From Candidatus Nanoarchaeia archaeon (GTDB taxonomy: Archaea; Nanobdellota; Nanobdellia; CSSed11-243R1): 64,000 nucleotides of DNA. The notes below the pieces were generated by a model. That model was not told the DNA's origin, searched no databases, and was given only the letters and a program-made list of their open reading frames with translations. A program made the translations under genes and the position numbers. The DNA is taken from contig JAQTNH010000001.1 in assembly GCA_028713895.1 (NCBI GenBank), forward strand, positions 181,808 to 245,807, in the 5' to 3' direction. Positions within the stretch are counted from its first letter, which is position 1. The number at the start of each line of letters is the position of its first letter. Below, piece by piece: positions 36,474 through 60,272 of the stretch.

Positions 36474-36476
36474 GAT

Positions 36477-36791: not shown

Positions 36792-36800
36792 ATTGCTGTT

Positions 36801-37346: not shown

Positions 37347-37420
37347 ATTGGAATAACCATTAATAAACTTATTTCACTGAAGAGGGGTTAACAAGTCAGT
37401 TAAACTTCGCTGAATTGCTG

Positions 37421-38209
37421 TTAATCGAAGTTTGAGAATACGAGTATGCTGCTCTCAGGATGTGAGTAACGAAGGTTCTTTTCTTTTAAAAAGTGCCCCC
37501 TGAGATAAGAATCCACAAACTGTTCAAGGGAATACCATGTTGCATCTTCTCCCTCGAAATGCTTGACTTTTTTGCCGAACTTAAACCGCAGGTCATAGGT
37601 GGTGATTGTGCCAGCCTCTTCAGTTTCAACAGACTCTTTCTTAGCCAGTGTTATTTCGCCTTTCAGGACATCATCAACATAGACCAAAATCTTATTTTTT
37701 TCGCTGATAGGTTCGACCTTTTTATTGGCGTAAAACTCTGAAAATGCATTTTTGCCCTTATGTTTTACAGCATCCAAAAAGTAATTCTCGGCTTCACTAG
37801 AAGAAGGCGCATTTTTGTGAGCCATCACTTTCTTCAGGCTGGGCATAAAATTTTCAGATGTCTTTACAATAGCATTCAAATCCCGTCCTCCAGTGACATG
37901 AGTCAATCTTAACTTTCCTGCTTTGGCTTTTTCTGCAAGCTTTATCAGCTTTTCCTCGTTTTTGGGACTAATTTTTTTATTGTAAGGCAGCCCTGGCTTT
38001 GGGCTGTCTTTCAACAAAGAAAAATACTGGTCAGAAGTCAACAGAAAGTCCAATGCATTATAATCAATGTCTGTCAGGGAGTCTTTGTATACATTGAGAC
38101 TGCGATACTCCTTGTTGAGATGGTACTCTTTCTGGATATCCCTAAATTTATCTGACTTTGGCTTTTTATCCAAAGGTACTCCAGTTACGTATTTTATTAT
38201 GTGTTCCAT
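37421..38209 (-). CDS. Hypothetical protein (262 aa from MEHIIKY)
   Basis: ORF 37421..38257 with a probable internal start. Confidence 0.45.
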   Translation of the reverse strand: MEHIIKYVTGVPLDKKPKSDKFRDIQKEYHLNKEYRSLNVYKDSLTDIDYNALDFLLTSDQYFSLLKDSPKPGLPYNKKISPKNEEKLIKLAEKAKAGKLRLTHVTGGRDLNAIVKTSENFMPSLKKVMAHKNAPSSSEAENYFLDAVKHKGKNAFSEFYANKKVEPISEKNKILVYVDDVLKGEITLAKKESVETEEAGTITTYDLRFKFGKKVKHFEGEDATWYSLEQFVDSYLRGHFLKEKNLRYSHPESSILVFSNFD

Positions 38210-38382
38210 GATATGTAGCCTAGCATATCGTGATTTATAAATCCAACTCGCCAGCAAAACTACGCTTATTTCTGTTAGAAGAAGTTCTTAGAAAAAAGCC
38301 TTAATCCTTAAACTTCAGAAGACTTTTAGGAATCGTGCCATAGCTCTTTGATTTACAGCTTCGTTAAATTTAAAAGCAAGTA

Positions 38383-38396
38383 TATACTGCAGGATA
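38383..38396 (+). promoter_or_regulatory. Palindromic box TATACTGCAGGATA (copy 2)
   Basis: Preceded by CGTTAAATTTAAAAGC (BRE/TATA). Here the GGTGGGGTTCT leader is replaced by GGTGCTATAAAG. Confidence 0.5.
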
Positions 38397-38410
38397 TAGG
38401 TGCTATAAAG

Positions 38411-38737
38411 ATGGGATACCTGAGGGTCATAACTGAATTGCATGCCAGGAGAGCAGGGCTTGTGCTGGAAGAAAGAGAACTGTTTGAAAACTTAGGCAGC
38501 TCTGTTGATATTGGACAAGCAGCAAAACGAGGAGCTTATTCTTTACAGATAACAGAAACCGTGCACAAAAGCGAATCAGGAAAAATAAGCATAGACGAGT
38601 TTGTGGACATCATAGACACCCAAAAATCTGCAATAGTGTTCAGCATGGAAGGCAGTAGAATCTTTGACAGGGCAGAAGCAGAAAGAACGATAGAGCAAGA
38701 GATTAAAAAGTATTTTGTGGATCCTTTAGTTCTTTGA
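38411..38737 (+). CDS. Hypothetical protein (109 aa)
   Basis: Start MGYLRV, 15 nt after the palindromic box. Confidence 0.45.
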   Translation: MGYLRVITELHARRAGLVLEERELFENLGSSVDIGQAAKRGAYSLQITETVHKSESGKISIDEFVDIIDTQKSAIVFSMEGSRIFDRAEAERTIEQEIKKYFVDPLVL

Positions 38738-38786
38738 GCGCTCTCGGGGCGAAAGATTTTTATCTGTATACAGTTTAGAAACCTGC

Positions 38787-39134
38787 ATGGAAACAACAAT
38801 GTGGATGATTTTGGGCGCAATAATTGTGATTGCCCTGATATACGCAGTTGTTTTGGTTCACAAAAACAAAAAACTGCTAAAGCCATGGACTGACGAAACA
38901 TGGATTGAATCAGGCGGAATGTTTCTTTTGATCGGGTATGTCCTTTCTTTGCTGGGCATTGAAATGAGCGTATTAATGGCTATTGGTTCAATTTACTTTG
39001 TAATCGGGTTTGTTAAAAAACATATTATAAAAGAGAAGAAACTGAATGAAAGGCAGAGAATGTATGCAACAATAGGAATAGCTGTATTGGTTGCGCTGTG
39101 TGTTATTATTTTCTTAATCTTTGTTGTCAAATAG
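38787..39134 (+). CDS. Membrane protein (3 TM)
   Basis: 115-aa hydrophobic ORF. Confidence 0.5.
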   Translation: METTMWMILGAIIVIALIYAVVLVHKNKKLLKPWTDETWIESGGMFLLIGYVLSLLGIEMSVLMAIGSIYFVIGFVKKHIIKEKKLNERQRMYATIGIAVLVALCVIIFLIFVVK

Positions 39135-39260
39135 AGTCATGAAACGCTTTCTGGCAAGTTCTTTTGAGTTCCAGCTCTCTCAGGGTAATTTATTGTCAAT
39201 ATTGAAGAAAAATAAAAGAAAAATAAGAAAAAAGTTGGGGAATGACTAAATTTGTTAAAA

Positions 39261-39356
39261 TTACTCTGTTTCTTCTTGTGTTTCTTCAGCTGCGTTCTCT
39301 GCTGGTGCTGCTTTTTCTTCTTCGTGCTTGTGTGCGCTCTTTTTTGGTCTTGCCAT
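39261..39356 (-). CDS. 31-aa micro-protein MARPKKSAHKHEEEKAAPAENAAEETQEETE
   Basis: Strong Shine-Dalgarno site AAGGAGGT 7 nt upstream of the ATG. The longer ORF-track version is rejected. Confidence 0.3.
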   Translation of the reverse strand: MARPKKSAHKHEEEKAAPAENAAEETQEETE

Positions 39357-39547
39357 GGTAGAACCTCCTTTGATTTGGGTTCGTGATTTCAGAAAAAGGG
39401 TATTAATACGCCTTTCGAAAGGTATATAGGGAGTTTTGGGGGCTAGGGGTGTGGTCGGGGTATTTGTTTTCAATATGGAAATTAAAGCAGAGAAAGGTTT
39501 ATAAGTGACTACTTGTTAGTAATGATTTAGTAGCGGGTGGACAAAAA

Positions 39548-39934
39548 ATGGGAAAACTGTCTGGAATACAAAAGATATTGGCGGAATCCTCTGATAAAGA
39601 GTTAAAAACAAGTTTAGCAAAAGGAAGGATAAAGATTCCAGGAGTAGAATTATCGGTAGATTTTGATGCAATGCTGGCGATAAAGGATATTAAATCCTTT
39701 TTAAAAAAGCCTCCAGAGGAATACTTGATATATATTTCTTGTCCGTCTTGTCCAAACCATGACATAGATTCATTCACATTAAGTTATAATTCAACATCAG
39801 ATACTTTAGAATACTTTTCGGAAGCAGATAAAGATTGTATTGATCTTGGTGAAAATGGATGCAAAAATTATAAGTCCTGCAAGATGGTTAAGCTGTACAA
39901 TGAGCTTAAGAAACAAGAAAGTTCTGAAAACTAA
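39548..39934 (+). CDS. Hypothetical protein (128 aa, Cys cluster CPSCPNH...C...C)
   Basis: ORF. Confidence 0.45.
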   Translation: MGKLSGIQKILAESSDKELKTSLAKGRIKIPGVELSVDFDAMLAIKDIKSFLKKPPEEYLIYISCPSCPNHDIDSFTLSYNSTSDTLEYFSEADKDCIDLGENGCKNYKSCKMVKLYNELKKQESSEN

Positions 39935-39975
39935 TTTTTTCTTAAAATGTTCGCTGAATATGGAGTGATGATAAA

Positions 39976-40509
39976 ATGAAAAAATCTGATACTACGTTTA
40001 TAAGAGAATTCATAAAAAAGAGAATCATAAGGATAAGAAAAGAAGTGAATGAAAGATATCCAAACTTTAAAACAGATTTTAGCGAATATTTGGCAGCCAA
40101 CAAGGAATTTTTTGCACCTTTCATGGAAGAGAAACCTGAGCTGCATACCCTCACTGTCAAAGGTTCTCGTGAGGAAATAGAAGACAAAGTTCGTGACCAC
40201 TACATACAAATGTATTCTGCTGAGATTGTGGAAGAAGGGCGCAAATCAAAAGTAAGCTATGGTTTCAGTCTGGTATATCGTCCTTTTATTGAAAGATTAA
40301 CAGACCCTGAAAAGGAGTATACAATTCAACTTCCAAACTTTACTAAAGCCATGGGGCTGTTGGATCATTTAAAATTTCCTTATGAGGATTATTCAGTTCA
40401 AGTCATCAAGAAAAAAACTATAAAGATTATTCCATTATTAGGCATAGAATCTCTTGCACAAGGAGGAATAGAAATTATAAGTTGTATCGGGGATACGACT
40501 GAAGATTAA
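39976..40509 (+). CDS. Conserved hypothetical protein, paralog B of 36801..37346
   Basis: Preceded by the repeat TTCTTAAAATGTTCGCTGAATAT. Confidence 0.55.
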   Translation: MKKSDTTFIREFIKKRIIRIRKEVNERYPNFKTDFSEYLAANKEFFAPFMEEKPELHTLTVKGSREEIEDKVRDHYIQMYSAEIVEEGRKSKVSYGFSLVYRPFIERLTDPEKEYTIQLPNFTKAMGLLDHLKFPYEDYSVQVIKKKTIKIIPLLGIESLAQGGIEIISCIGDTTED

Positions 40510-40706
40510 AAATGACTGTTAATTGCCTTAACCGATTTTTTATTTCAGTAATTCTTTTGGGTCCCAGCTCTCTTAGGGGCAGGTTTAAAGGGAATTCAGC
40601 GCAGGGTTTTTGAGTCGATTACTGGAAATAGTGGACAACACCCTAAATTTGATAAAGATAAACCCTCATTAGATTTTACTATTGCAAAAATTCGTGAGGT
40701 GATATT

Positions 40707-40940
40707 ATGGATCTTGCTATAAAATTCTGGAAAAACTGGCTTGAAGAAAAGAATCCAATGAAAAGATGGAGAATGATTGAAAAATTGCCTGTGGTTATAG
40801 AGATTACTGATTATATTGCACTCAACAAGATTTCTAAAAAAGAAAGATTAAGAACGTTTTCACCAACACTTGATTCGCTATTCGAAGATTTAAAAGATAC
40901 AATTTATAGCCTGGAGCTAAAGAAGAAGACAAGAAAATGA
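40707..40940 (+). CDS. Hypothetical protein (77 aa)
   Basis: ORF. Confidence 0.35.
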   Translation: MDLAIKFWKNWLEEKNPMKRWRMIEKLPVVIEITDYIALNKISKKERLRTFSPTLDSLFEDLKDTIYSLELKKKTRK

Positions 40941-41050
40941 AACGTAGCGCTGCAATAAAGAAGTCAATAAAAGGAGTTTTAATATGAATTGCATGATTGG
41001 TACAATTAAATGGACAAAAGGTATAAATAGATGTACTTATTAGTAAAATA

Positions 41051-41602
41051 GTGAACGGTATGGTACAACAGTTTAGATTATCCAAAGTTTCGGGAAAATT
41101 TATTGAGATACTTCTGTGGCTTATCGGGCTAAATCGCGAAGAAATCTATGTTTCAGAGCTAAGCAAGGAACTAAAAATGTCAAAGTCAACAGTCATAAAA
41201 TGGCTTGAGGAATTAACCAAATGGGAGCTTGTAACCGAACGAAAGCGCGGAAACATGCATTATTACAGGATAAATGGAGAAAACCCAATTATAAAGCAAT
41301 TCAAAATCCTGCAAAGCGTTTCTGAATTGACTCCGCTCATGAAAAGCTTGAAAGGTATGGCTGAAGTTTATTTGTTTGGCTCTTCAGCGCGAGGCGAGGA
41401 CAGGCCAGACAGTGATTATGACATTCTTGTTGTAACCAAACTTAATTCAAATGAAGTCTTTAAGAAACTTAAGAATGAGGACAGACTCAAAAACAGGAAA
41501 ATAAGCCTGCTTATAGTAAAACCCTTTGAATATGCAGACATGGCAAAACATGATCCTGCACTTTACCAAAGGATAGAAATAGACAAAATCAGGCTGGTAT
41601 AA
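41051..41602 (+). CDS. Minimal nucleotidyltransferase (MNT) with N-terminal wHTH
   Basis: NTase motif LFGSSARGEDRPDSDYDILVV. Confidence 0.75.
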   Translation: MNGMVQQFRLSKVSGKFIEILLWLIGLNREEIYVSELSKELKMSKSTVIKWLEELTKWELVTERKRGNMHYYRINGENPIIKQFKILQSVSELTPLMKSLKGMAEVYLFGSSARGEDRPDSDYDILVVTKLNSNEVFKKLKNEDRLKNRKISLLIVKPFEYADMAKHDPALYQRIEIDKIRLV

Positions 41603-42075
41603 TGGACATAAACGAAGCAAAAGATGAAGGACTAATAAGTGATTTGCCTAAAGAAGAAAATGTTACAGACATTGTTGAAAAAGAAATAAAGTCTGCAGAG
41701 TATGACTTAAGCGAAGCAAAAGAAGGGTTCAGCAAGGGCAAGACAAAATGGCCTGTAGTACAGGCCTATTATGTTATATTTCATGCTGCAAGAGCGCTGA
41801 TGTATAAGTTCAAGCTGAAGGAAATAAAGCATGAGGGAATAGTTGTTTTCCTGGAAGAGAGGGTAAAAGTCGGAAAACTGAGAAACGAGTTTGTGACAAT
41901 ATTCAAATCGCTTAAATCAACTAGGGAAGACTCAAACTATGACAGCGATTTCAGCGAAGAACGCGCAAGAAAATCAATAGAAAGCGCAGAAGAGTTTTTG
42001 AAAGAAATGAAGGCGCAGCTGAGCGAAAAAAAGGCCGGAAAAACCGGCAAACAGTTTGTTTTCTTGTTGTTGTAA
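41602..42075 (+). CDS. HEPN-domain protein, partner of the MNT (MNT-HEPN module)
   Basis: Start overlaps the MNT stop. The HEPN-like motif is TREDSNYD. Confidence 0.65.
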   Translation: MDINEAKDEGLISDLPKEENVTDIVEKEIKSAEYDLSEAKEGFSKGKTKWPVVQAYYVIFHAARALMYKFKLKEIKHEGIVVFLEERVKVGKLRNEFVTIFKSLKSTREDSNYDSDFSEERARKSIESAEEFLKEMKAQLSEKKAGKTGKQFVFLLL

Positions 42076-42159
42076 AAGTCCAATAATTCTTTGAGTTTAG
42101 GGCTCTTTGGGCAGGGTTTTTGGGCTAAAAAGGGCACGCACTTATAACGAACGCAAGAA

Positions 42160-42513
42160 TTATCTGTCCTTATACCCAAATTTTTTATTATATTTTGGAT
42201 GATCAATGATGTCTAAAACAAAAGCAATGATTTCTATTTCGCTTTCATTGTTTGTAAGAGTATAAAGCATGCGCCAAAAATTCGGGAGCTCTATCCTGAA
42301 AAGGTTTGTGATGCCATATTTTTGTTTGTACTCTTCAGGTATGAGCTTCTTGGCTATCGGGTCACCATAGTGAGGATTAGATTTCAGAAATTCTACTTTG
42401 TTGTTCAGAGCATTAAGAATTATCTTTTCTGTTTTTGAGCCAGGCGCCTGTTCATTGAGGTATTTGTAAACTTCCTCTGCTTCAGGCGAAAGTATGACCC
42501 TTATTATCTTCAT
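42160..42513 (-). CDS. RelE/YoeB-like toxin candidate
   Basis: 117-aa basic protein. The C-terminal IEIIAFVLDIIDH pattern resembles YoeB/Txe. It overlaps the upstream small gene by 4 nt. Confidence 0.4.
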   Translation of the reverse strand: MKIIRVILSPEAEEVYKYLNEQAPGSKTEKIILNALNNKVEFLKSNPHYGDPIAKKLIPEEYKQKYGITNLFRIELPNFWRMLYTLTNNESEIEIIAFVLDIIDHPKYNKKFGYKDR

Positions 42514-42788
42514 AGTTCCACACCTGCTGCAATTGCCCTCTTAAGGTTCTGATTTGTATTGTGTATCCATGTTATGCCTTTCATTGTAATCAATATTTTA
42601 TTGCTTTTTTCAAGATATTCAAGAATTATTTTAAGGGTGTTGTGATTAATCTGTTTGGGAAGCCTTCGCTTAAGTTCAGCTATTGTAATTGCGCTTTCAT
42701 CCATGTTTGTCAGGACATTTTCCACCATGAAGACAGTATTAAGAGTAGGTGAATGTTCCAATTTTTCCATTTGAACCTGTTTTGCCAT
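42510..42788 (-). CDS. Putative antitoxin / small DNA-binding protein
   Basis: Start MAKQVQM. It is coupled to the toxin-like gene. Confidence 0.35.
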   Translation of the reverse strand: MAKQVQMEKLEHSPTLNTVFMVENVLTNMDESAITIAELKRRLPKQINHNTLKIILEYLEKSNKILITMKGITWIHNTNQNLKRAIAAGVEL

Positions 42789-42920
42789 ATTTATCACTCC
42801 GTATCATTTAGTTATTAATAAATAAGTAATAGTTACTATTTTATATAGTTACTCTTCGTTTGAGGTTCCAGTAATTTCTTGAGTCCTGGGGGCACGCTTC
42901 GTTAACTTTAAAAACCAATA

Positions 42921-42934
42921 TATACTGCAGGATA
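42921..42934 (+). promoter_or_regulatory. Palindromic box TATACTGCAGGATA (copy 3)
   Basis: Flanked by the TATA box TTTAAAAA (42907) and the leader motif (42940). Confidence 0.5.
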
Positions 42935-42939
42935 TAAGT

Positions 42940-42950
42940 GGTGGGGTTCT
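42940..42950 (+). promoter_or_regulatory. GGTGGGGTTCT leader motif
   Basis: See the motif family. Confidence 0.55.
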
Positions 42951-42973
42951 AGAATTAAATAAGCTGATGTTAA

Positions 42974-43717
42974 ATGAAAATCAAATTTCATGGCGTATCA
43001 AACGGCTATGCTTACGAAAACCAAAATTTGGGGTGTATTTGTTTAGATGATAAAATCCTTTTAGACTGTGGCATAACAAGTTTTCCACGACCTTATTTTG
43101 ATAGCTTAGATGCATTATTTTTGTCTCATGGACATAAGGATCACATAGTTGGTATAAGCTCGCTTACATTGGGCTTAGCTGTTGAAACAGACAGAAAAAC
43201 AAGAAGGGATAGGGATTTTTGCATCTATGTTCCTGCAGGCATAAAAGACAAAATAGAAGACCGTATTGATAAAACATACAAAGACAAAGTAAAGATATTT
43301 GAAAAGAATCCAGGGGATAAATTCAGATTTTTGGATGAATATGACATAAAAACTGTCAAAGTAGAGCACAAGGGAGATTGTTTAGCATACAGATTTGAGA
43401 AGGATGGAAAAAGTTTTGTTTATACTGGCGATGCTGTACCTTCTCAAGAAGTAATTGACCTTTCAAAAAATGTTGATGTGCTGATACATGAAGCCAGCTT
43501 TGTAAATAAGTTTAGAGAAGTGGCAAATAGCTGGAAACACTCGACTTCTGAACAAGCAGCAGAGGTTGCACAAAAGTCTGGTGCAAAAACACTGATTTTA
43601 ACATTAATCTCACCTCATGTAAGGCTGAATAATATGGAAGAATACCTGACTGAAGCACAAAATGTCTTTCTTGGCAAAATTATTATTGCATACGAAGGCC
43701 TGGTTTATGAGTTATAG
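42974..43717 (+). CDS. Metallo-beta-lactamase-fold hydrolase
   Basis: HxHxDH motif (HGHKDHIVG) and downstream His/Asp residues. Confidence 0.8.
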   Translation: MKIKFHGVSNGYAYENQNLGCICLDDKILLDCGITSFPRPYFDSLDALFLSHGHKDHIVGISSLTLGLAVETDRKTRRDRDFCIYVPAGIKDKIEDRIDKTYKDKVKIFEKNPGDKFRFLDEYDIKTVKVEHKGDCLAYRFEKDGKSFVYTGDAVPSQEVIDLSKNVDVLIHEASFVNKFREVANSWKHSTSEQAAEVAQKSGAKTLILTLISPHVRLNNMEEYLTEAQNVFLGKIIIAYEGLVYEL

Positions 43718-43787
43718 TGATGCTGTTTGATAATCCAGTAATTCTTTGAGTCCTGGGGGCACGGTTCGTTAACTTTAAAAACGACTG

Positions 43788-43801
43788 TATACTGCAGAAT
43801 A
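43788..43801 (+). promoter_or_regulatory. Palindromic box TATACTGCAGAATA (copy 4)
   Basis: TATA box at 43774 and leader motif at 43808. Confidence 0.5.
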
Positions 43802-43807
43802 TAGGTT

Positions 43808-43818
43808 GGTGGGGTTCT
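43808..43818 (+). promoter_or_regulatory. GGTGGGGTTCT leader motif
   Basis: See the motif family. Confidence 0.55.
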
Positions 43819-43832
43819 AAGAGGGAAAATAA

Positions 43833-44258
43833 ATGAATGGTGATAAGATGGATTACAGGCTGCCTAACAGGTATGTTAAAGCTACAGACCACAACAAAGA
43901 ACTGGAAGTGAATATGGACGCGGAAAGAATTCTTAAAATATGGTGTTCTGGCTGCAGCAAAAATAAGAAATGCGATTACATGCCAACATTGGTTTCAATG
44001 ATTGGCGTCACTGAAGTTGATAAAGCAGACGAGGAAAATTTGATGGAAACTATAACATTCATATACAGGCCTGATATGGACAGCAGCAGAGCTCCCTTTT
44101 GCAAGAATGCAGACGAGAAATCGATTGTACGTTTTGAGGAAGCTTCTGAAAGATTACGCAAGGAAATCGAGCTTAAAGAAAATTACAAGCGATCCCAAAA
44201 AGATAAATATCTTGGCTTAGAGATTAAAATAATTGGAGACACAGTAAACGATGAGTAG
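43833..44258 (+). CDS. WCSGC-motif protein, paralog 1 (141 aa)
   Basis: Shares the YRLP..YV...WCSGC...C...C pattern with the next gene. Confidence 0.55.
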   Translation: MNGDKMDYRLPNRYVKATDHNKELEVNMDAERILKIWCSGCSKNKKCDYMPTLVSMIGVTEVDKADEENLMETITFIYRPDMDSSRAPFCKNADEKSIVRFEEASERLRKEIELKENYKRSQKDKYLGLEIKIIGDTVNDE

Positions 44259-44268
44259 GTGGGGTTCT
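44258..44268 (+). promoter_or_regulatory. GGTGGGGTTCT leader motif (starts at the stop codon of the previous gene)
   Basis: 13 nt upstream of the ATG at 44282. Confidence 0.5.
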
Positions 44269-44281
44269 TGGAGTGGGATAA

Positions 44282-44704
44282 ATGAGCAATGACAAAAAAA
44301 ATTACAGACTGCCTGAAGGGTATGTTGAAACTGACGGAGATTGGGGAGTAGACTATAAAACAGCAGTTAATGTGCTCAGGAACTGGTGTTCTGGCTGCAA
44401 GAAAAAGGAAGATGGAAATTGTGAAACTGTGATAGACCTTGTAGGTTTATTGAGTATGGAAGAAATCCCTGGCGTAGCTTATGAGTTCATGACACGAATC
44501 AAGCCTAAGAAGGGTGGAAGAAGCATTCTTTACTGCACAAAGGCTGACAGCCTATCAATTGCATATTTTGAGGAAAGGCAGAGGGACTTAGAAAGAGAAA
44601 AAAGAAAATTAAAGGCTGCTATCGATGAAGGCTTTGCCGAAGCAGAAAAAGAATTAGCAAAAGGAAGAGAGGCAAGACTAAGAAAGTTGGGATTAAAGAA
44701 ATAG
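44282..44704 (+). CDS. WCSGC-motif protein, paralog 2 (140 aa)
   Basis: Paralog of 43833..44258. Confidence 0.55.
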   Translation: MSNDKKNYRLPEGYVETDGDWGVDYKTAVNVLRNWCSGCKKKEDGNCETVIDLVGLLSMEEIPGVAYEFMTRIKPKKGGRSILYCTKADSLSIAYFEERQRDLEREKRKLKAAIDEGFAEAEKELAKGREARLRKLGLKK

Positions 44705-44721
44705 ATGGAGAGTGATGAAAG

Positions 44722-44976
44722 ATGGAAAAACCATATCAAATAAAACCATATCAAGTTTTACAAGAATATCAAAGTTTACACGAAGGAATCAAACCTTTAA
44801 AACATGCTTCGAAGTATGCCCCAATAGTAGTAGAACTGGGAGAAACTGTAACTTTAAGCAGTTTAGGCATAGACACTTCCAGTAGACTGGCGTTTCTATG
44901 CAGCTTGCCTTCAGATACGGTAATGCATACAGACAGAGATGGACATGTTACATGCACATTCTCTATAGAGAAATAA
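44722..44976 (+). CDS. Hypothetical protein (84 aa)
   Basis: ORF. Confidence 0.4.
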   Translation: MEKPYQIKPYQVLQEYQSLHEGIKPLKHASKYAPIVVELGETVTLSSLGIDTSSRLAFLCSLPSDTVMHTDRDGHVTCTFSIEK

Positions 44977-44998
44977 ACAAATCTTGAGAGGGATATAA

Positions 44999-45481
44999 AT
45001 GAACAAAACGCTAACTGAAATTTTAAAAAAGGACCCGAAGGATGTAACTATCCAAGAAAAAGAGTGTCTGGATTTAGAAGAAATCAGTAAGTTAGCTGAT
45101 AGATTTAATAAGCAGTACGAAAGTCTCATACAGCAAGCCAATGAGCCATACAAAGACAAGGAAAATGTAAGTTTGGTGTTCTGCGATGGAAAACTTGTTA
45201 AGGCTTACACTATGCAACGTTATGATATCCCTTTTGATGAGATTTCTAAAATTGAACAAGAACAGGGCAAAGCATGTTATGTAGTTGAGATGATAAACAA
45301 ACCGTCTGAAGACGACATCCGTATTTTTGAACCCCAAACAGGCATAAGAGACTCCTACAAAAACCTTAATGATGCATATAAAAAAATGGGTGACGATATG
45401 CATACTTTTGAGCAGGAATTGCGTGAAGGAATCAAAGAAGTGCGTAAGGAAGTTAAATCGCTTGAAAAGAAGCAAAAATAA
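44999..45481 (+). CDS. Hypothetical protein (160 aa)
   Basis: ORF. Confidence 0.5.
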   Translation: MNKTLTEILKKDPKDVTIQEKECLDLEEISKLADRFNKQYESLIQQANEPYKDKENVSLVFCDGKLVKAYTMQRYDIPFDEISKIEQEQGKACYVVEMINKPSEDDIRIFEPQTGIRDSYKNLNDAYKKMGDDMHTFEQELREGIKEVRKEVKSLEKKQK

Positions 45482-45525
45482 AATTTTCTTAAAATGTTCG
45501 CTGAATATACATTAAACGAAGTTTT

Positions 45526-45828
45526 TTAATGCGATTTTTGATGTTTTTTATGGTTTTTTTGAACCTTTATTATTACTTTGCTTGCTTTTCCTGCTTCCAA
45601 GGCTGGCAAAAGGTGCGACAGGAACTGTTCTGCAGTCATCTTTCGGACTGTGCCATTGGTGGTCTGAGTCCATTGGCCTTTGACTTTCTTGTATTTCTGT
45701 TTCCAGCCGCTTTTCTTGATAATGAGATAGATCGTGCATTCGTCGTTCTTCATGATTTTAGCTCGTGTTAGACACACACGTTTACTTGTTTTGACTCTGC
45801 TTGCAGGGACAATGTTTTTGCCTGGCAA
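45526..45828 (-). CDS. Hypothetical basic protein
   Basis: ORF. The real start may be the internal MKNDEC. Confidence 0.3.
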   Translation of the reverse strand: MPGKNIVPASRVKTSKRVCLTRAKIMKNDECTIYLIIKKSGWKQKYKKVKGQWTQTTNGTVRKMTAEQFLSHLLPALEAGKASKVIIKVQKNHKKHQKSH

Positions 45829-46127
45829 GTCCTGTTTGTGCAGTCTGAGTCATCATTGCAGTAATCAGTGCAAATTCCTATGCTTTCATTTGCTTTTTGA
45901 GTGCAAATGCCTTCAGCGAAATTCAGGCATTCAACATAGCATATCTGGCCTGAGCTGCATTCATCATTTATGTGGCATTCTCCTGGATTATGCACATAGA
46001 CATGGTGCTCAACAGCTGTGAAATTTGGCTTAACAATCATAACGAGAGCGACAAATGCAAGAACAATAACAGCAAAAAGAATGTTTCTAGAACAAAAGAT
46101 GCATTTGAAATCTAATTTTTTAGCCAT
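45768..46127 (-). CDS. Secreted Cys-rich small protein (signal anchor plus about 12 Cys)
   Basis: Start MAKKLDF preceded by GGAGGG. The mature part is NPGECHINDECSSGQICYVECLNFAEGICTQ...CTDYCNDDSDCTNRTC. Confidence 0.5.
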   Translation of the reverse strand: MAKKLDFKCIFCSRNILFAVIVLAFVALVMIVKPNFTAVEHHVYVHNPGECHINDECSSGQICYVECLNFAEGICTQKANESIGICTDYCNDDSDCTNRTCQAKTLSLQAESKQVNVCV

Positions 46128-46150
46128 AGTTATCCCTCCAAAACATCCTG

Positions 46151-46303
46151 TCAAAGCTTGAATCTTTTTGGCTTCTTTTCTGTTTCCTCTTCTAATACAA
46201 GAGCGCCTACATAGCCGCATTTATTACATTGGTATTGGCCAAAATTGCCGCCCATGTAGAGGTCTATCTCTTTTGAGCGGCATTTTGGGCACATCTTTGC
46301 CAT
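46151..46303 (-). CDS. 50-aa zinc-ribbon micro-protein (CPKC...CNKCGY)
   Basis: Not in the ORF track. The arrangement TAATATG couples it to the upstream gene. Confidence 0.45.
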   Translation of the reverse strand: MAKMCPKCRSKEIDLYMGGNFGQYQCNKCGYVGALVLEEETEKKPKRFKL

Positions 46304-46304
46304 A

Positions 46305-46544
46305 TTATTTGCAGCAATTGTTGTTGCAGCTGCAGTGGCCTTTCTTCATCAGTGCAAATGCTATCACTAGCAATGCAAGAATCCACCATGCGATGCCATC
46401 AAAGATGATTCCTTTTGTGTTAAGTATCCACACAAGCAAGCCTGCGAAGACAAGTCGCGCTAAAAAGCCGCCGTGGCAGCCGCAGCACATTCCTTGCCAG
46501 GACCACACCATCATTTTTGGTTCAATTTTTGATTTTTTTGCCAT
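46305..46544 (-). CDS. Small membrane protein with CCGCHGG and CSCNNNCC motifs
   Basis: Start MAKKSK preceded by GAGGTG. Two TM helices. Confidence 0.5.
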   Translation of the reverse strand: MAKKSKIEPKMMVWSWQGMCCGCHGGFLARLVFAGLLVWILNTKGIIFDGIAWWILALLVIAFALMKKGHCSCNNNCCK

Positions 46545-46587
46545 ATTTTTACACCTCAAAGTTTTAAGATTTGCTCGAATCTTTTAA

Positions 46588-46854
46588 TCATGATTCGCGT
46601 TCAATTTCGCGGGCTTTTGTTTTTACGTCTACTACAACTTCGCGCTCTTTGTTAAGCACGCCAGTAAATTCTTCCAAATGTTTTATGCCTATGTCTGCCT
46701 GGTTTTTTGCATCCTCAAGAAGCTTTAAATTGTTCTTTTCAATAGCGCGATCTATTATAGTTTTGATGGTTTTGAGATTATTTGCTGCTTTTTTAATCTC
46801 TTCAAAGCCTATTCCCTCAAGCGCCTGAAGGTTCTTTGGCAGTTCTTTTGGCAT
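46588..46854 (-). CDS. Hypothetical protein (88 aa, start MPKELPK)
   Basis: ORF-track call trimmed to the Shine-Dalgarno-supported start. Confidence 0.4.
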   Translation of the reverse strand: MPKELPKNLQALEGIGFEEIKKAANNLKTIKTIIDRAIEKNNLKLLEDAKNQADIGIKHLEEFTGVLNKEREVVVDVKTKAREIERES

Positions 46855-46858
46855 GTAA

Positions 46859-47575
46859 TCACCCTTTTTTAATTTTGTAGTATATTTTCTTTCCAATGGC
46901 TTCTTTTTCCAGGGCGCCCAGCTCTGCGAGCCTGTTCAGCCTGAATGAAGCTGTTGAACGGGATAAATTGATATAGTCAGCGAGCTGGTTTGCTGTGACG
47001 CGCTCCTGGCGGCCGACCCAGTCAATAACTTCCTTGTCCTTGATTGTGAGCTGGCTTATGTGAGTTATTGCGCTGTCCAGAGTCTGTGAGGAAACTCCTT
47101 TTTCAGCTATTTCGTCCTTTGTTCGCTGCAATAGGTCAAGTATAAAGTCTAATTTCTCTAAATCATTGAGTTTTTCAAGGCGATGGTCCATTGACTTAAG
47201 AACATGATTTAATTCCTCTAAAATCTGGGAATTTATGATTTTAACCTGTGATAAAGGATGCTGCTGCGCTGCCTTTATAGTGTCTTCCCACTGCTTTATT
47301 GCTATGTGCGAAGCTTCTTCCTGCAGCTTTAGCTTTGTTGGCTCGTGTTGAACAGTTGATTGGCGCTCCTGCCTTATTTTGGCTAAATCTGCCTCAAAAT
47401 CATGTTTTAAGTGTTCGTCAACAGGTTCGTCAGTTGTTGATTGCTGTTCAACAGAATTTTTTTGCTCGTCTAGAAGGTAGGGCCTAACTATTTTTTCAGA
47501 ATCCATCTTTTCTACCGGAAGGCTGTCTTCAGGCTTGCTGCTGAAAAGACGTTTTAAAGCGTCTAATATCCCCAT
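46859..47575 (-). CDS. Transcriptional regulator with C-terminal wHTH and N-terminal coiled coil
   Basis: The wHTH segment is LADYINLSRSTASFRLNRLAELGALEK. Confidence 0.6.
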   Translation of the reverse strand: MGILDALKRLFSSKPEDSLPVEKMDSEKIVRPYLLDEQKNSVEQQSTTDEPVDEHLKHDFEADLAKIRQERQSTVQHEPTKLKLQEEASHIAIKQWEDTIKAAQQHPLSQVKIINSQILEELNHVLKSMDHRLEKLNDLEKLDFILDLLQRTKDEIAEKGVSSQTLDSAITHISQLTIKDKEVIDWVGRQERVTANQLADYINLSRSTASFRLNRLAELGALEKEAIGKKIYYKIKKG

Positions 47576-47639
47576 TTCACCTGCTTTTTAAAGGCAAGGG
47601 ATGTTTATTAAGCTTTCTATGGCGCATTTTAGGGGTTCG

Positions 47640-47940
47640 CGCGCGAGCGCACCTGTTGGCGCAGTTCCAACACATCCAACACTTTAGTCAACAACTTCGA
47701 CACATTCGACACATCATCCAACACATTCGACAGTCAACACATCCAACACTTCCAACATATGTTGAACACATGCTTAATTTGCCTATTTTTTCCTTCAAAT
47801 TACGTGGTTTTAGTGTTCAACAGATTCGTCAAAAACCCAACAGATTCAACAGTCAACACATTCGACAGTCAACAAGTTCGACAACAAGTTCGACACATTC
47901 GTCAACAAGTTCGACAGATGGTCCAACACATAGATTAGAG
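47640..47940. repeat. Iteron-like degenerate direct-repeat array with a 9-bp inverted repeat
   Basis: More than 20 copies of short units (TTCGACAC/G, ATCCAACAC, GTCAACAC/AAG). The inverted pair is GTTGAACAC (47762) and GTGTTCAAC (47815). Confidence 0.6.
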
Positions 47941-48108
47941 CTGAAGTATAGTATTACATTATTATTCAATATTGAAATCAAATAAAGTGAGATGGGTTTT
48001 TAGGAGTAAAAAGAGAGGGTGGGCCTAAGTTGGTAAGAGGTGAGAATAAGGGGTCAAAAAGTGAGGGTTCTAAGAGAGATGTTTGAAAAGAAGGCAAAAA
48101 TGGCGAGA

Positions 48109-50569: not shown

Positions 50570-51481
50570 ATGGAGACAAGCGCGGATGTCAAAAAAGTAA
50601 TCGGGCTGCTCAAGGGCAAAAAGAAGCTCATTGCAATGCTTGCGCCTTCCTTTGTTGTGGATTTCAAGTATCCTGACACAATTATCCTACTCAAACAAAT
50701 GGGGTTTGACAAGGTAAGCGAGCTGACATTTGGCGCGCGCATAATAAACAAATATTATCATGAAATAATCAAGAAAAATCCGGACACGATGTTCATAAGC
50801 ACTGCATGCCCGGTTGTCGCGATGATGGTGAAGTCGCAGTATCCGCAGTATGCGGGCAATCTCATGCCTGTTGTGTCTCCGATGGCTGCAACCGCGAGGA
50901 TTCTCGACAAAAATTATCCAAACCATGATATTGTGTTCATTGCGCCGTGCCCAGCAAAAAAAGAAGAGGCAAAAATCTACGGAAAGCTGATTGACGCGGT
51001 GATTACATACAAAGAACTGAAGCAGCTGATTGAATATGCCCAAGAAAACAAGATGATTAAGCCCAAAAAAGTCAAAAGCCATCTTTTTGACAGGTTCTAT
51101 GCAGACTACACGAAAATTTACCCGATATCAGGAGGTTTGTCAAAGACGCTTCATAAAAGAGACATACTGAAAGAAAATGAAGTAATCGTGCTGGAAGGGC
51201 CTGCTGAAATGCAGAAGCTGTTCAGCTCAAAGATTCCAAAACACATACGCTTCCTTGATGTGCTGTTCTGCAAGGGCGGATGCATCGGAGGGCCTGGAGT
51301 GAATTCCCAAGAGCCGATTGAAGCGCGGCGCGCGAAAGTGCTCAGCTATCTTGAGCTGGCAAAACATGAGAAGATGGGCAAGAGGCGCGGGATGATTAAG
51401 GACACTGAAGGCGTTGAGTTCAACACGCCAAAAAAATACATAGGCAACAAGTGCTTTACAGAATGCGAAAGGGATTTTTAA
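50570..51481 (+). CDS. [FeFe]-hydrogenase-like H-domain protein (Fe_hyd_lg_C, Nar1/HydA-like)
   Basis: Motifs ISTACPVVA (L1-like, only one Cys), IAPCPAKKEE (L2, MPCxxKxxE) and FCKGGCIGGPG (L3). There are no N-terminal ferredoxin domains. Confidence 0.55.
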   Translation: METSADVKKVIGLLKGKKKLIAMLAPSFVVDFKYPDTIILLKQMGFDKVSELTFGARIINKYYHEIIKKNPDTMFISTACPVVAMMVKSQYPQYAGNLMPVVSPMAATARILDKNYPNHDIVFIAPCPAKKEEAKIYGKLIDAVITYKELKQLIEYAQENKMIKPKKVKSHLFDRFYADYTKIYPISGGLSKTLHKRDILKENEVIVLEGPAEMQKLFSSKIPKHIRFLDVLFCKGGCIGGPGVNSQEPIEARRAKVLSYLELAKHEKMGKRRGMIKDTEGVEFNTPKKYIGNKCFTECERDF

Positions 51482-54900: not shown

Positions 54901-55054
54901 TCTATATGTATAGACAGCCAGGGTACATTATTTCTTACAGAGAACTGTTTCAAGAGGCCTTAAGAATAACCCTAAAACAATGATGTTTAAAGGAAAAAAG
55001 CCCGAAACAGGTATTTAACTGTTCTAAGAGGTTTTTTTGCAGAGAAAAAATCAA

Positions 55055-55158
55055 TAGCCCCGCGCGGATTCGAACCGCGGTCACAAGGTCCAGAGCCTCG
55101 TATCCATAGTCTCTATCCTCGTCGCCTAGAATAGATTTGACCACTAGACTACGGGGCT
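55055..55158 (-). tRNA. tRNA-Gln(CUG) with a putative 32-nt non-canonical intron in the D-loop region
   Basis: Perfect 7-bp acceptor stem AGCCCCG/CGGGGCT plus discriminator A. T-arm CGCGG-TTCGAAT-CCGCG. Anticodon arm CGAGG-CTCTGGA-CCTTG gives CUG with U33. Variable loop TGAC. The gene is 104 nt. Removing 55106..55137 gives a 72-nt canonical tRNA. The 3' end of the intron (AGACTA) pairs with the exon D-stem strand (TAGTCT), as expected for a BHB-type substrate. Confidence 0.6.
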
Positions 55159-55192
55159 ATCTAAAAGATAAACAGAAATCTGGTTTATAAAG

Positions 55193-56242
55193 TTATTCGA
55201 AAAACTCAGGGTCTGCACTACCGAACAATCGCTTGTTCTCTTCCTCGTGTTTTTTGTTTAATTCATCGCGCAATTTCCTGTGCTGTTCGTAACGCTGGCG
55301 CGGAGTCGGATAATCAGGCATATCCATCTCCTTGCAAGGCTTGTTGACTTTCTCGACAGTCTTTGCCAATCGTTCAACATCGCCAGAACCTTTCTTGTCT
55401 TTAGAACCTTCAGGCGAGGCCTGTTGTGGCTCCTGTGCATTTTCAAGCTGCTCTTTCTTGCTTCGCTTGTAATCGCTGTACAGACTCCTGCTGTCCTCGT
55501 ATATGTTCTGCTCAAAGAAACTGAGATCGTTCCTTTCTGATTCGCGCAAATCTCGTATGGACTTGTTAAGCCCCCTTATTTTTACGCGCTCATAGGTCTT
55601 GCCCTTTTTTGAGTACGCTGCAAAATAATACATCTCTTTTAAAATAAAAACTCCAGCAGCTATGCCTAGTCCGATAGGCGCTGAGTATTCCAGCGGCAAG
55701 CCCAACGCTGTTGTCACAGAAGTTGCAACGGTTCCGCTTGCAAGAGGTATTGTTGCTTTTTGTATTCCCTTACCTATCTTTGATTTTATGCTTTTAACGT
55801 GCATCTTGAAATCAAATTTTTCATCCTGGCAGTCCTTTATCTCATCTGCAAAATCCTCGTAGTGCGGCCTTCGAAGACGGACATAGTACATTATCCTATC
55901 GTATATTTTTTTGTTGTAAATATGCTCAGGTGTTTTTTCGTCAAAACAATTGACTATTTTTTCCAAATCATCCTTAACCAGTTTAAGACTGTCAAGCCCC
56001 TCATTTGCACGGTCTATCTCAGTCTTGAACTCCTCGCGCTCCAAATAGGAAGTTGACTTGTTAAGAAGACCCTGAAGCCTGTATACCCTGCGCTTTTCAG
56101 CCTGGTACTGCGCGATTGACTCAACATATCCATAAACTTCGAATGGGCGAATCAATCTGTTATCATAAACTGTCTTGTCAAGAACCCGCTCTAAGTTAGC
56201 TGCAACCTTCTTCCCAGATTTAGAGCCAATTGTCTTTTCCAT
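55193..56242 (-). CDS. Hypothetical protein with one TM segment (349 aa)
   Basis: ORF. Confidence 0.5.
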   Translation of the reverse strand: MEKTIGSKSGKKVAANLERVLDKTVYDNRLIRPFEVYGYVESIAQYQAEKRRVYRLQGLLNKSTSYLEREEFKTEIDRANEGLDSLKLVKDDLEKIVNCFDEKTPEHIYNKKIYDRIMYYVRLRRPHYEDFADEIKDCQDEKFDFKMHVKSIKSKIGKGIQKATIPLASGTVATSVTTALGLPLEYSAPIGLGIAAGVFILKEMYYFAAYSKKGKTYERVKIRGLNKSIRDLRESERNDLSFFEQNIYEDSRSLYSDYKRSKKEQLENAQEPQQASPEGSKDKKGSGDVERLAKTVEKVNKPCKEMDMPDYPTPRQRYEQHRKLRDELNKKHEEENKRLFGSADPEFFE

Positions 56243-57885: not shown

Positions 57886-59958
57886 ATGGTTTGTGAACAA
57901 GAAATACGAAAGATAGGTAATAAGAACTTTCTTATGATAAACTGTCTTCACTGTGCAAACAACTCCTCATTGGGCAACATAACCTGCTTCAGACGCATTC
58001 TTGACAAAATCAGGGAGAATAAGGATGTAGACAGCATAATTTTCCAGCGCGGATACAAAAAAATCCTTAATCCAAGCTCATTCAAAACGCTAAGGGAATA
58101 TGTGGATGTGATTGACAGCATCGAGGACGAAGAAGAAATGTGCGACGCTGACTTTGAAGCGTTCTCAATCCTGAAATTCAAGATGCAGGAAGACCCTGTG
58201 GGCGCAATACTGCACCTTATGAACATAGAACCGTGCAAGGATGACAAAAAAGTTTTTGACAGCATCAAAAAGAAATTTGAAAAGACAGAAATCTGGAAGC
58301 TCGTGAATGAAAACAAATCAAAATACAAGGAAAACGAACTTTTTCACATAATTTTCAGGGACAGGATACTGCCCGGATTTGTCAGCTTTTATACAGAGGC
58401 AATACCGCGCGATGCAAAAATAATTGAAAAATATGAAATCGCAGGCTCAAGCGTGCAAATCTATGAGATGAATGAAAAACCGCATCCTGTTTACCACATC
58501 ACGCCAAAAGAACTGAACCTCGGACGAAACGAACTTATACTCCTCAACAAGGCATTCATGAGGCTCAGCAAGGAAGAGTTTGACCAGAAGCGCGGACAGG
58601 CAATATGCGAGAAAGTGATAACCGAGCTCAGCCCTGAGATTTCAGAAGAAAAGAAAAAGGAGCTTGCAGCTGCGCTGCGAAGATATTCATTCGGATACGG
58701 AATAATCGAAGTGCTTTTCCAGGACCCGCGGATACAGGATGTATTTGTAGATTCTCCGGGAGACAAGCAGATTTACATCAACCATGCTGACTATGCTGAG
58801 TGCGCAACAAACATTATACTGTCTGCAGAAGAGCTTGAGAAGCTCTCAACACGATTCAGGCTGATTTCAGGACGCCCGTTTGACGAGAGCTACCCGATAC
58901 TTCACGCCGAGCTCAAGGATATGGGAATACGTATCGCAGGAGTCACAGAGCCGATGACATTCAACGGAATAGGATTCGCTTTCAGAAAGCACTCTGTGCA
59001 GCCGTGGACAATGCAGCAGTTCATAAAAAACGGAACAGTCAGCGCAGAAGCTGCAGGACTGATTTCGTTCCTTGTTGACGGGCAGCAGAGCATACTTGTA
59101 ACAGGCTCGCGAGGAAGCGGAAAGACATCAATACTCAGCAGCCTGTTTGCAGAGATTCCGCAGAATTTCAGGATAATCACAATCGAAGACACGCCTGAAC
59201 TCCCAATTGAGGAGCTCAGGGATTTGGGATACAATATCCAGCACCTCAGGGTAAAGTCAAGCCTGCAGAGAGAAGCTTATGAAGTAACTGCTGAAGAAGC
59301 GCTCAGAAGCGCGCTCAGACTTGGAGAATCTGTACTTGTAATAGGAGAAGTACGTGGGGAAGAAGCAAAATCGCTTTTTGAAGCCATGAGAATCGGGGCG
59401 GCAGGAAATGTTGTCATGGGAACAATCCATGGCAGCTCAGCGTATGATGTATGGGATAGAATTGTAAATGATTTGAAAGTCCCTTCAACAAGCTTCAAGG
59501 CAGCAGACATTGTCATAAACTGCGCGCCTGTCAGGAAAGGGGAAAAAATAAAAAGGGAACGAAGAATTATCGGGATAACAGAGATAGGAAAGTTCTGGAA
59601 CGCAGACCCGCAGAAAGAGAAAGGATTTGTTGACTTGATGGTATACAACCGCTCACGGGACAGGCTTGAGGTTTCAAAAGATTTGCGAAAAAGCTATGCG
59701 CTAAAAACAATCGCTATGAAAAAAGGGATGTCAATGGCAGATGTGATGAAGAGCATAAAGACGCGCGCAAAGATAAAAGAAGCAATTGTCAAGGCGTCAA
59801 ACAAGAACAACAACCTGCTTGATGTAAAGTTCGCGCTTATGTCAACAAACAAGTTCATTGAAATCATGAAAGGCTTCAGGACAAAGCCAAGCTATCCAAA
59901 AGTCCTCAGGGATTTCAGGAAATGGCTTGCTGTGCAGCAGAAAACATTTAAGGGATAA
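57886..59958 (+). CDS. Type IV pilus/archaellum-type secretion ATPase (FlaI/ArlI/GspE family) with a long N-terminal extension
   Basis: Walker A GSRGSGKTS, Asp box ITIEDTPEL, Walker B/His box GEVRGEEA...TIHGSS. 690 aa. Confidence 0.8.
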   Translation: MVCEQEIRKIGNKNFLMINCLHCANNSSLGNITCFRRILDKIRENKDVDSIIFQRGYKKILNPSSFKTLREYVDVIDSIEDEEEMCDADFEAFSILKFKMQEDPVGAILHLMNIEPCKDDKKVFDSIKKKFEKTEIWKLVNENKSKYKENELFHIIFRDRILPGFVSFYTEAIPRDAKIIEKYEIAGSSVQIYEMNEKPHPVYHITPKELNLGRNELILLNKAFMRLSKEEFDQKRGQAICEKVITELSPEISEEKKKELAAALRRYSFGYGIIEVLFQDPRIQDVFVDSPGDKQIYINHADYAECATNIILSAEELEKLSTRFRLISGRPFDESYPILHAELKDMGIRIAGVTEPMTFNGIGFAFRKHSVQPWTMQQFIKNGTVSAEAAGLISFLVDGQQSILVTGSRGSGKTSILSSLFAEIPQNFRIITIEDTPELPIEELRDLGYNIQHLRVKSSLQREAYEVTAEEALRSALRLGESVLVIGEVRGEEAKSLFEAMRIGAAGNVVMGTIHGSSAYDVWDRIVNDLKVPSTSFKAADIVINCAPVRKGEKIKRERRIIGITEIGKFWNADPQKEKGFVDLMVYNRSRDRLEVSKDLRKSYALKTIAMKKGMSMADVMKSIKTRAKIKEAIVKASNKNNNLLDVKFALMSTNKFIEIMKGFRTKPSYPKVLRDFRKWLAVQQKTFKG

Positions 59959-59992
59959 TTTTAAATAGGCATATTCTTTTTAGGATTTTATT

Positions 59993-60064
59993 GGGTTTGT
60001 AGCTCAGCGGGAGAGCACACGGCTGAAGACCGTGGGGTCGGGAGTTCAATCCTCCCCAAACCCA
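59993..60064 (+). tRNA. tRNA-Phe(GAA)
   Basis: Acceptor GGGTTTG/CAAACCC, D-arm GCTC/GAGC, anticodon arm CACGG-CTGAAGA-CCGTG, T-arm GGGAG-TTCAATC-CTCCC, discriminator A. No intron. Confidence 0.85.
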
Positions 60065-60272
60065 CTAATCTTTTCTCTTGTAAGCCGAAAGACTTCGTCT
60101 TTGGCTGCAGAGACAAAATCTCCGCAGAGAAAACATTAATGAAAAGAGAACATATCACTTTCTTGGCAACCTACCTTCGTTATCAAAGAAGGCGGAAACA
60201 TTAACGAAAGAAAGGGGAACTACTCCGAATCTTTATAAACATGGACGCTTCTAATGTAGTATTGGTGGTGTA

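Follow-up and report, generated by a model that had tools for sequence, protein, structure and literature searches.

Organization of the tRNA-Gln(CUG) locus

The window, i.e., the whole stretch of 64,000 nucleotides that was analysed, comes from a 'Candidatus Nanoarchaeia' MAG, so that the host of the genes described here is a DPANN archaeon. Its minus strand carries a tRNA-Gln(CUG) gene of 104 nt (55158..55055), AGCCCCGTAGTCTAGTGGTCAAATCTATTCTAGGCGACGAGGATAGAGACTATGGATACGAGGCTCTGGACCTTGTGACCGCGGTTCGAATCCGCGCGGGGCTA, which can be written from 55158 to 55055 in three blocks as AGCCCCGTAGTCTAGTGGTCAA-ATCTATTCTAGGCGACGAGGATAGAGACTAT-GGATACGAGGCTCTGGACCTTGTGACCGCGGTTCGAATCCGCGCGGGGCTA. This pre-tRNA body (55055..55158) was read directly from the sequence and does not encode CCA; ARAGORN identified it as tRNA-Gln(ctg) once the intron described below had been removed. 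The acceptor stem that encloses the gene is perfect and 7 bp long (AGCCCCG/CGGGGCT), and it is followed by the discriminator A. The 5' exon, corresponding to tRNA positions 1-21 (55137..55158, minus strand), contains the acceptor 5' strand AGCCCCG, U8 and A9, the D-stem 5' strand GUCU and the entire D-loop, AGUGGUCAA. The 3' exon (positions 22-73; 55055..55105, minus strand), known from direct reading and from the spliced product accepted by ARAGORN, comprises the D-stem 3' strand GGAU, the anticodon arm, a 4-nt variable loop, the T-arm, the acceptor 3' strand and the discriminator A. The anticodon CUG was located at 55091..55093 (minus strand) by direct reading and by ARAGORN run on the spliced form.

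The anticodon arm, CGAGG-CUCUGGA-CCUUG, is uninterrupted and holds no canonical intron at position 37/38; the variable loop and the T-arm (CGCGG-UUCGAAU-CCGCG) are contiguous with it. All the surplus sequence of the 104-nt gene sits between the D-loop and GGAU. Both exons are colinear and contiguous within the 104 nt, and the gene is neither split nor permuted. The preliminary description of this DNA had proposed perfect acceptor strands around 104 nt, a contiguous anticodon arm, variable loop and T-arm, and a surplus between the D-loop and the D-stem 3' strand, and all of these elements were found exactly where it had put them.

A pattern built from the exon halves matched once in the window and never in 100 shuffles, which argues against a chance resemblance. 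The same 104 nt, identical throughout, were also recovered from another two assemblies of this organism, namely GCA_028713185.1 and the Logan assembly of SRR22315509, and since three assemblies in all agree, the locus is not an assembly artefact. A 104-nt tRNA-Gln(CUG) gene with a single insert between the D-loop and the D-stem 3' strand is thereby confirmed as a real feature of the genome. Neither ARAGORN with default settings nor Rfam at its gathering score made a call at 55055..55158.

The flanks of the gene were also inspected. A TATA-like box, TTTATAAA (55184..55191, minus strand), read directly from the sequence and putatively functional, lies immediately 3' of the stop codon of the upstream ORF, and its end is 25 nt ahead of the first base of the mature tRNA. 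On the other side, a run of six T residues (55045..55050, minus strand), also read directly, begins 4 nt past the discriminator base and may serve as a terminator. The tRNA-Phe gene of the window (59993-60065, plus strand) is preceded by TTTAAATA at 59955-59962, with a reported spacing the same as that of the tRNA-Gln box; both window tRNA genes, Gln on the minus and Phe on the plus strand, were described as having a TTTAWAWA box that ends 25 nt before the mature 5' end. Such boxes fit a promoter layout of archaeal type common to the two genes, and the TATA-like box together with the T6 run fits an expressed archaeal tRNA gene, the function of both signals being putative.

The tRNA-Gln(CUG) gene adjoins a gene for an archaeal-type D-aminoacyl-tRNA deacylase (DTD2, PF04414), in keeping with an archaeal host. 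Pfam scans of approximately 50 ORFs of the window detected no EndA or RtcB domains. Other ORFs with Pfam matches, at 5794-6843, 9788-10594, 12411-13091 and 50570-51481, correspond to an MnmA-type tRNA 2-thiouridylase, a Xer/phage-type integrase, a Cas4-like PD-(D/E)XK nuclease and a [FeFe]-hydrogenase large subunit C-terminal domain, respectively. On the plus strand, two giant ORFs lie side by side at 15467-21826 (2119 aa) and 21932-27601 (1889 aa). The region of approximately 36000-48000 has a GC content of 0.36-0.39, compared with about 0.44 elsewhere in the window, is crowded with short ORFs for which Pfam gave no match, and includes a nucleotidyltransferase/HEPN pair at 41051-42075; this low-GC stretch may be a genomic island.

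Intron boundaries and the predicted spliced product

The insert was delimited as an intron of 31 nt, AUCUAUUCUAGGCGACGAGGAUAGAGACUAU, located between A21 and G22 (55106..55136, minus strand; 23-53 in pre-tRNA numbering), on the basis of BHB geometry, the predicted fold, intron-less homologues and related genes that carry an insert. Its removal leaves a 73-nt tRNA with a 9-nt D-loop, AGUGGUCAA, for which ARAGORN gave a tRNA-Gln(CUG) cloverleaf. When ARAGORN was run on 240 enumerated candidate deletions, nearly all of them were accepted as tRNA-Gln, and for this reason the boundaries were taken from BHB geometry and from homologues. According to the BHB rule of archaea, each strand presents a 4-nt strand of the central helix followed by a 3-nt bulge, and the cut falls after the second base of the bulge; the eukaryal anticodon-intron pair has the same spacing. 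Application of this rule to the window gene places the cuts at AA/A and AU/G, which makes the intron 55106..55136 and its length 31 nt. No second copy of the intron was found in the window with up to six mismatches allowed.

The cut sites obtained in this way agree, independently, with the junction seen in intron-less homologues. The pattern used in a metagenome scan admitted genes with and without the insert. Of the 20 loci retrieved, 18 were intron-less tRNA-Gln(CUG) genes, and every one of these 18 read GGTCAA/GGAT, the predicted junction. The predicted 73-nt tRNA differs from the closest of them (L140) by 2 nt, which form one compensatory pair (C27-G43 to G27-C43), and from two others by 3 nt (L123) and 4 nt (L131). 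The Rfam tRNA model scored four natural intron-less 73-nt genes at 59-67 bits versus 24.3 bits for the unspliced window gene. Moreover, the L123 locus is syntenic: the ORF lying immediately upstream of its intron-less gene shows homology (E = 2e-26; 36% across 197 aa) to ORF 55193-56242 of the window, and a neighbouring secretion ATPase is common to L128 and the window (67% identity). As close relatives possess the same gene minus the insert, the exon boundaries can be regarded as fixed.

The preliminary description had given the intron as 32 nt (55106..55137), which oversteps the 5' boundary by one base. Deletion of those 32 nt does yield, as it stated, a 72-nt product that ARAGORN accepts as tRNA-Gln(CUG), but the best-supported mature form has 73 nt.

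Predicted fold of the precursor

Folding of the 104-nt RNA gave an energy of -43.5 kcal/mol (z = -3.1 relative to shuffles), and both the MFE and the centroid structures retained the acceptor, anticodon and T arms. In both structures the D-loop is captured by the intron through a 4-bp central helix, in which the exon strand GGUC (G18 G19 U20 C20a; 55139..55142, minus strand) pairs with the intron strand GACU (55108..55111, minus strand), i.e., nucleotides 17-20 with 48-51 of the pre-tRNA. The 5' splice site lies in a 3-nt bulge, AA/A (55136..55138, minus strand; pre-tRNA 21-23), present in the MFE and centroid structures, with the cut after 55137. Beyond this bulge, the intron forms an 8-bp inner helix, h', again in both structures, between UCUAUUCU (55128..55135, minus strand) and AGGAUAGA (55112..55119, minus strand), corresponding to pre-tRNA positions 24-31 and 40-47. 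The 3' splice site, AU/G (55105..55107, minus strand), was assigned to a bulge or internal loop from its distance to the 5' bulge, which amounts to four pairs plus two bases, the cut being after 55106.

The arrangement thus comprises two bulges on opposite strands flanking the 4-bp helix GGUC/GACU, which is the BHB. The strict hBHBh' form has a stable helix of 2 bp or more beyond each bulge; here the inner helix has 8 bp, but the outer one consists of a single pair. The outer closure of the 3' bulge in the window gene is a lone U16·G23 wobble. The centroid fold places the 3' splice site in a 3x2 internal loop beside a partly formed D-stem, and in the MFE fold the central helix is lengthened by two pairs, which abolishes the 3' bulge. 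Since the 3' side is closed by U16·G23 alone, the splicing motif is best described as relaxed and HBh'-like, and the one-wobble outer helix together with the loss of the 3' bulge in the MFE fold implies that cleavage would need an endonuclease that accepts relaxed motifs. When the window intron was shuffled, the BHB geometry was reproduced in 153 of 100,000 cases (0.15%).

A different pairing had been suggested previously, in which AGACTA at the 3' end of the intron pairs with TAGTCT of the exon D-stem, as in a BHB-type substrate. The two strands are indeed complementary in this gene, but it is GGUC/GACU that sets the splice sites. As a conserved helix TAGTCT/AGACTA was rejected: it is kept in 19 of the 61 distinct sequences compared below and its 4-bp core in 24, as against 58 for GGUC/GACU.

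Conservation of the intron among archaeal tRNA-Gln genes

A genome scan, with one genome per species, was performed for tRNA-Gln genes carrying 12-42 extra bases at the A21/G22 site, and the loci in which such an insert was revealed numbered at least 119. Among the matches listed, those from Nitrosopumilaceae and other Nitrososphaerota had inserts of 13-23 nt, nearly all of them in genes whose anticodon loop carries another insert. The listed matches also included tRNA-Gln genes of Bathyarchaeia and of MAGs assigned to Woesearchaeota, Pacearchaeota, 'Nanoarchaeota', Aenigmatarchaeota and Micrarchaeota, the latter group of MAGs having inserts of 23-40 nt. Both the CUG and the UUG isoacceptors were represented among them.

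For the comparison of the splicing motif, 61 distinct sequences were used, namely the window gene, the scan matches listed and one additional locus, L127. All four central pairs could form in the same register in 58 of the 61, while registers shifted by 1-4 nt allowed this in at most one. The exon strand GGUC is invariant. The intron strand varies in the relatives (GAUC, GACU, GGCC, GAUU and GGCU), all of these variants can pair with GGUC, and the changes are exclusively pair-preserving transitions. Because GGUC never varies, the support for the central helix comes from one-sided changes only. The 5' bulge in the relatives was AA/A in 54 cases, AA/U in five and AA/G in one, and the 3' bulge conformed to A(A/U/G)/G. 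The outer helix consisted of the single 16/23 pair in all 60 unique sequences counted, with C-G at this place in most relatives.

The inner helix was evaluated in a pseudo-alignment of 18 long introns brought to a fixed length. Two-sided changes were found in all six pairs tested. In these 18 introns, 82% of the inner-helix cells were paired versus 67% in shuffles, none of the 500 shuffles reaching 82%, and the best register was the one at slide 0, ahead of all slid registers. Beyond what the BHB needs, the inserts of the listed relatives, 13-40 nt long, have nothing in common in sequence.

Several tRNA-Gln loci showed additional peculiarities. Many tRNA-Gln genes of DPANN archaea, among them L048, L086 (Aenigmatarchaeota, CP070804.1), L127, L124, L129/L137, L138, L002 and L072, have extra inserts in the T-arm or the T-loop, whether or not the D-loop intron is present; an example reads GGTTCGAA-ATATTGAACATACGAAA-ATCCGTC. 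The Bathyarchaeia genes L020 and L115 apparently have three inserts each. The gene of Nitrosopumilus sp. H13 (L112, RHFB01000091.1) has AAATGGT rather than AGCCCGA as its acceptor 5' strand and otherwise looks like the usual tRNA-Gln of Nitrosopumilus; the gene could be truncated, or it could have a further disruption near position 7/8. Finally, scaffold1 of 'Candidatus Rhodobacter oscarellae' (L046, NZ_LFTY01000001.1) contains at 6514-6565 a Nitrosopumilus-type tRNA-Gln(CUG) with inserts in the D-loop and the anticodon loop, identical over the displayed stretch to the gene of a Nitrosopumilus sp. (L019). Mis-binning or mis-scaffolding of thaumarchaeal DNA seems to have brought this gene into an assembly labelled as bacterial.

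Alternative explanations

The data very probably describe a functional DPANN tRNA-Gln(CUG) gene with a 31-nt protein-spliced intron between A21 and G22. Three other readings were weighed against it.

The insert might have broken a once-intact gene and never be removed, leaving a tRNA-Gln pseudogene. Such a fate would agree with the silence of the standard detectors, and the finding that syntenic and near-identical relatives are intron-less means that the insert is dispensable. Against such a fate, every tRNA element is intact, and a single compensatory pair is all that separates the exons of the window gene from those of the closest intact homologue. The insert, moreover, occupies the exact site of the BHB-forming inserts in 58 of the 61 distinct related genes, and it builds the 4-bp helix and the bulges that so few shuffled inserts reproduce (0.15%). 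The TATA-like box and the T-run also flank the gene, with a spacing as for tRNA-Phe. Decay to a pseudogene is therefore considered quite improbable.

The stability of the 104-nt fold, with its intact acceptor, anticodon and T arms, could also be explained by retention of the insert in the mature RNA, which would then be a tRNA with an enlarged D-arm bearing an extra hairpin. In that fold, however, G18 and G19 are sequestered in a helix, and residues paired in this manner would be unavailable for the tertiary pairs between the D-loop and the T-loop. The variable length of the relatives' inserts, which share only the sequence required by the BHB, is more in line with a removable element than with a functional domain. 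A retained insert thus appears very improbable.

The third reading assumes a different tRNA with a canonical anticodon-loop intron, and it draws on two computational results. ARAGORN in intron mode (-i) returned, for 55054-55159 on the minus strand, a tRNA-Pyl(CUA) with an 18-nt intron, and Rfam in E-value mode aligned its tRNA model with 55055-55126 at 24.3 bits. Almost no weight can be given to this reading, since the tRNA-Pyl(CUA) model needs an acceptor stem of 8 bp and a D-stem of 3 bp that includes a mismatch, turns the real anticodon arm into an unpaired extra arm and takes its 'CUA anticodon' from intron sequence conserved in none of the relatives listed, and the Rfam alignment stays below the gathering score of 29 with mismatched acceptor pairs. 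A better canonical fold with an intron at 37/38 had been named in the preliminary description as the outcome that would speak against a D-arm intron; the search for one gave only this poorly folded tRNA-Pyl(CUA), and the proposal stood.

The Rfam match at 55055-55126 and a mascRNA-like match were both rejected as partial misfolds. The E-value scan of the whole window with Rfam revealed no further sub-threshold tRNA. Group I introns possess a ribozyme core of a few hundred nucleotides; a self-splicing intron of this group was rejected, as the insert has 31 nt and Rfam at E <= 10 gave only tRNA-like and chance matches here.

Proposed splicing pathway and implications

The reading of the locus as a tRNA-Gln(CUG) gene with a BHB-type intron at a non-canonical site of the D-arm, put forward in the preliminary description, is upheld by the fold, the intron-less homologues, the covariation and the archaeal host. 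The evidence for the protein-spliced intron consists of the sequence, the fold, the junction, the conservation, the covariation and the archaeal host, and from what is established about archaeal tRNA splicing we infer the transcription of the gene, the cleavage and ligation of the precursor and the type of endonuclease.

In the proposed pathway, GACU of the intron would capture G18 G19 U20 C20a of the D-loop in the precursor, creating the 4-bp central helix of the BHB. One side of this helix would present the bulge A20b A21/A and the 8-bp intron hairpin, and the other side AU/G22 closed by U16·G23. EndA would cut at A21/A and U/G22, after the second base of each bulge, and a RtcB-type ligase would join the exons into the 73-nt tRNA with the D-loop AGUGGUCAA, the expected spliced junction being ...GGUCAA joined to GGAUACGAGG. 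Splicing would free the D-loop for its tertiary contacts, and the 31-nt intron would be released, probably as a circle. The relaxed motif with its 1-bp outer helix and the link drawn in the literature between such motifs and particular enzymes (PMC5829648) make it plausible that an endonuclease of relaxed specificity is required for this intron.

Among the matches listed, the A21/G22 intron is common to Nitrosopumilales, Bathyarchaeia and several DPANN orders, and it is absent at syntenic loci of close relatives. It could tentatively be viewed as a position-locked feature of archaeal tRNA-Gln, either ancient with repeated loss or gained repeatedly at a preferred site, which on the sequences compared we consider rather unlikely. 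Convergence at A21/G22 is possible, since the shared sequence features are only those that the BHB itself demands. The pairing of the intron with G18 G19 could have a role of its own, e.g., keeping the precursor unfolded until splicing or guarding the gene against integrating elements.

The finding has consequences for annotation. Default ARAGORN and Rfam at its gathering score skip the gene, and the intron mode of ARAGORN miscalls it as a tRNA-Pyl(CUA) suppressor, so that a DPANN genome could seem to be without tRNA-Gln(CUG) or to possess a recoding tRNA. The tRNA-Pyl(CUA) call is a pitfall for annotators, who might take it as a sign of stop-codon recoding that does not exist. The locus also supplies a clean DPANN example for the catalogue linking relaxed BHB introns to splicing endonucleases of broad specificity, and the occupation of the same tRNA-Gln site in three archaeal groups makes it a handy marker for studies of intron gain and loss. 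The current understanding of archaeal tRNA splicing is left unchanged by the tRNA-Gln(CUG) intron.

Comparison with known systems

The canonical tRNA intron of archaea and eukaryotes is located at 37/38 and adopts the strict hBHBh' form, in which EndA cuts in two 3-nt bulges four base pairs apart, and ligation follows. The chemistry and enzymes expected for the window intron are the same. It differs in its D-arm site, in the 1-bp outer helix that replaces the anticodon stem, and in the engagement of G18 G19, rather than anticodon-loop bases, in the central helix.

A close parallel is the pre-tRNA-Glu(UUC) of Methanopyrus kandleri, whose D-loop intron at 20b/21 has a relaxed HBh' motif and is cleaved in vitro by the broad-specificity (alpha-beta)2 EndA of A. 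pernix (PMC5829648). Both cases concern a short D-loop intron of a Glx tRNA with a relaxed motif formed by one clean bulge, a helix and an inner stem. The window gene belongs to Gln rather than Glu and to a DPANN archaeon rather than a euryarchaeon, and its intron is situated one base away, at 21/22 instead of 20b/21; the M. kandleri gene has a canonical intron in addition, whereas the window gene has the D-loop intron only, which is known here from its sequence. The endonucleases that cut relaxed, non-canonical introns are of the (alpha-beta)2 and epsilon2 types with specific loop insertions, and alpha4-type enzymes with the 'L3' insertion, found in several DPANN lineages, go together with more disrupted tRNA genes (PMC5829648).

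Within DPANN, the pre-tRNA-Cys of ARMAN-2 (Micrarchaeum) contains an hBH intron at 59/60 that is cut by an epsilon2 EndA (PMC3239211). The window intron resembles the ARMAN-2 introns in its DPANN host, its relaxed BHB and its non-canonical position and, by analogy, probably in its dependence on an endonuclease of broad specificity. It differs from the ARMAN-2 tRNA-Cys intron, which is a T-loop intron of the hBH form, in lying in the D-loop and in having the HBh' form.

In the study of tRNAscan-SE 2.0, 673 non-canonical introns were reported in 217 archaeal genomes; the program models the non-canonical BHB introns of Thermoproteales and Thaumarchaeota, including a Thaumarchaeota-specific intron model, removes the intron and re-scores the remainder (PMC8450103). 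The term 'DPANN' does not occur in that paper (PMC8450103). The window intron falls into the same class, being defined by a BHB and placed outside 37/38 (PMC8450103). No paper naming position 21/22 of tRNA-Gln was found in the literature consulted, which is weak evidence of novelty. The nearest counterparts by position are the listed tRNA-Gln genes of Nitrosopumilaceae, which have an insert at the identical site with the same central helix; unlike the window intron of a DPANN host, these inserts are shorter (13-23 vs. 31 nt) and nearly always go together with a further anticodon-loop insert. The window gene is a further example, in a Nanoarchaeia MAG, of the documented non-canonical BHB introns of archaea.
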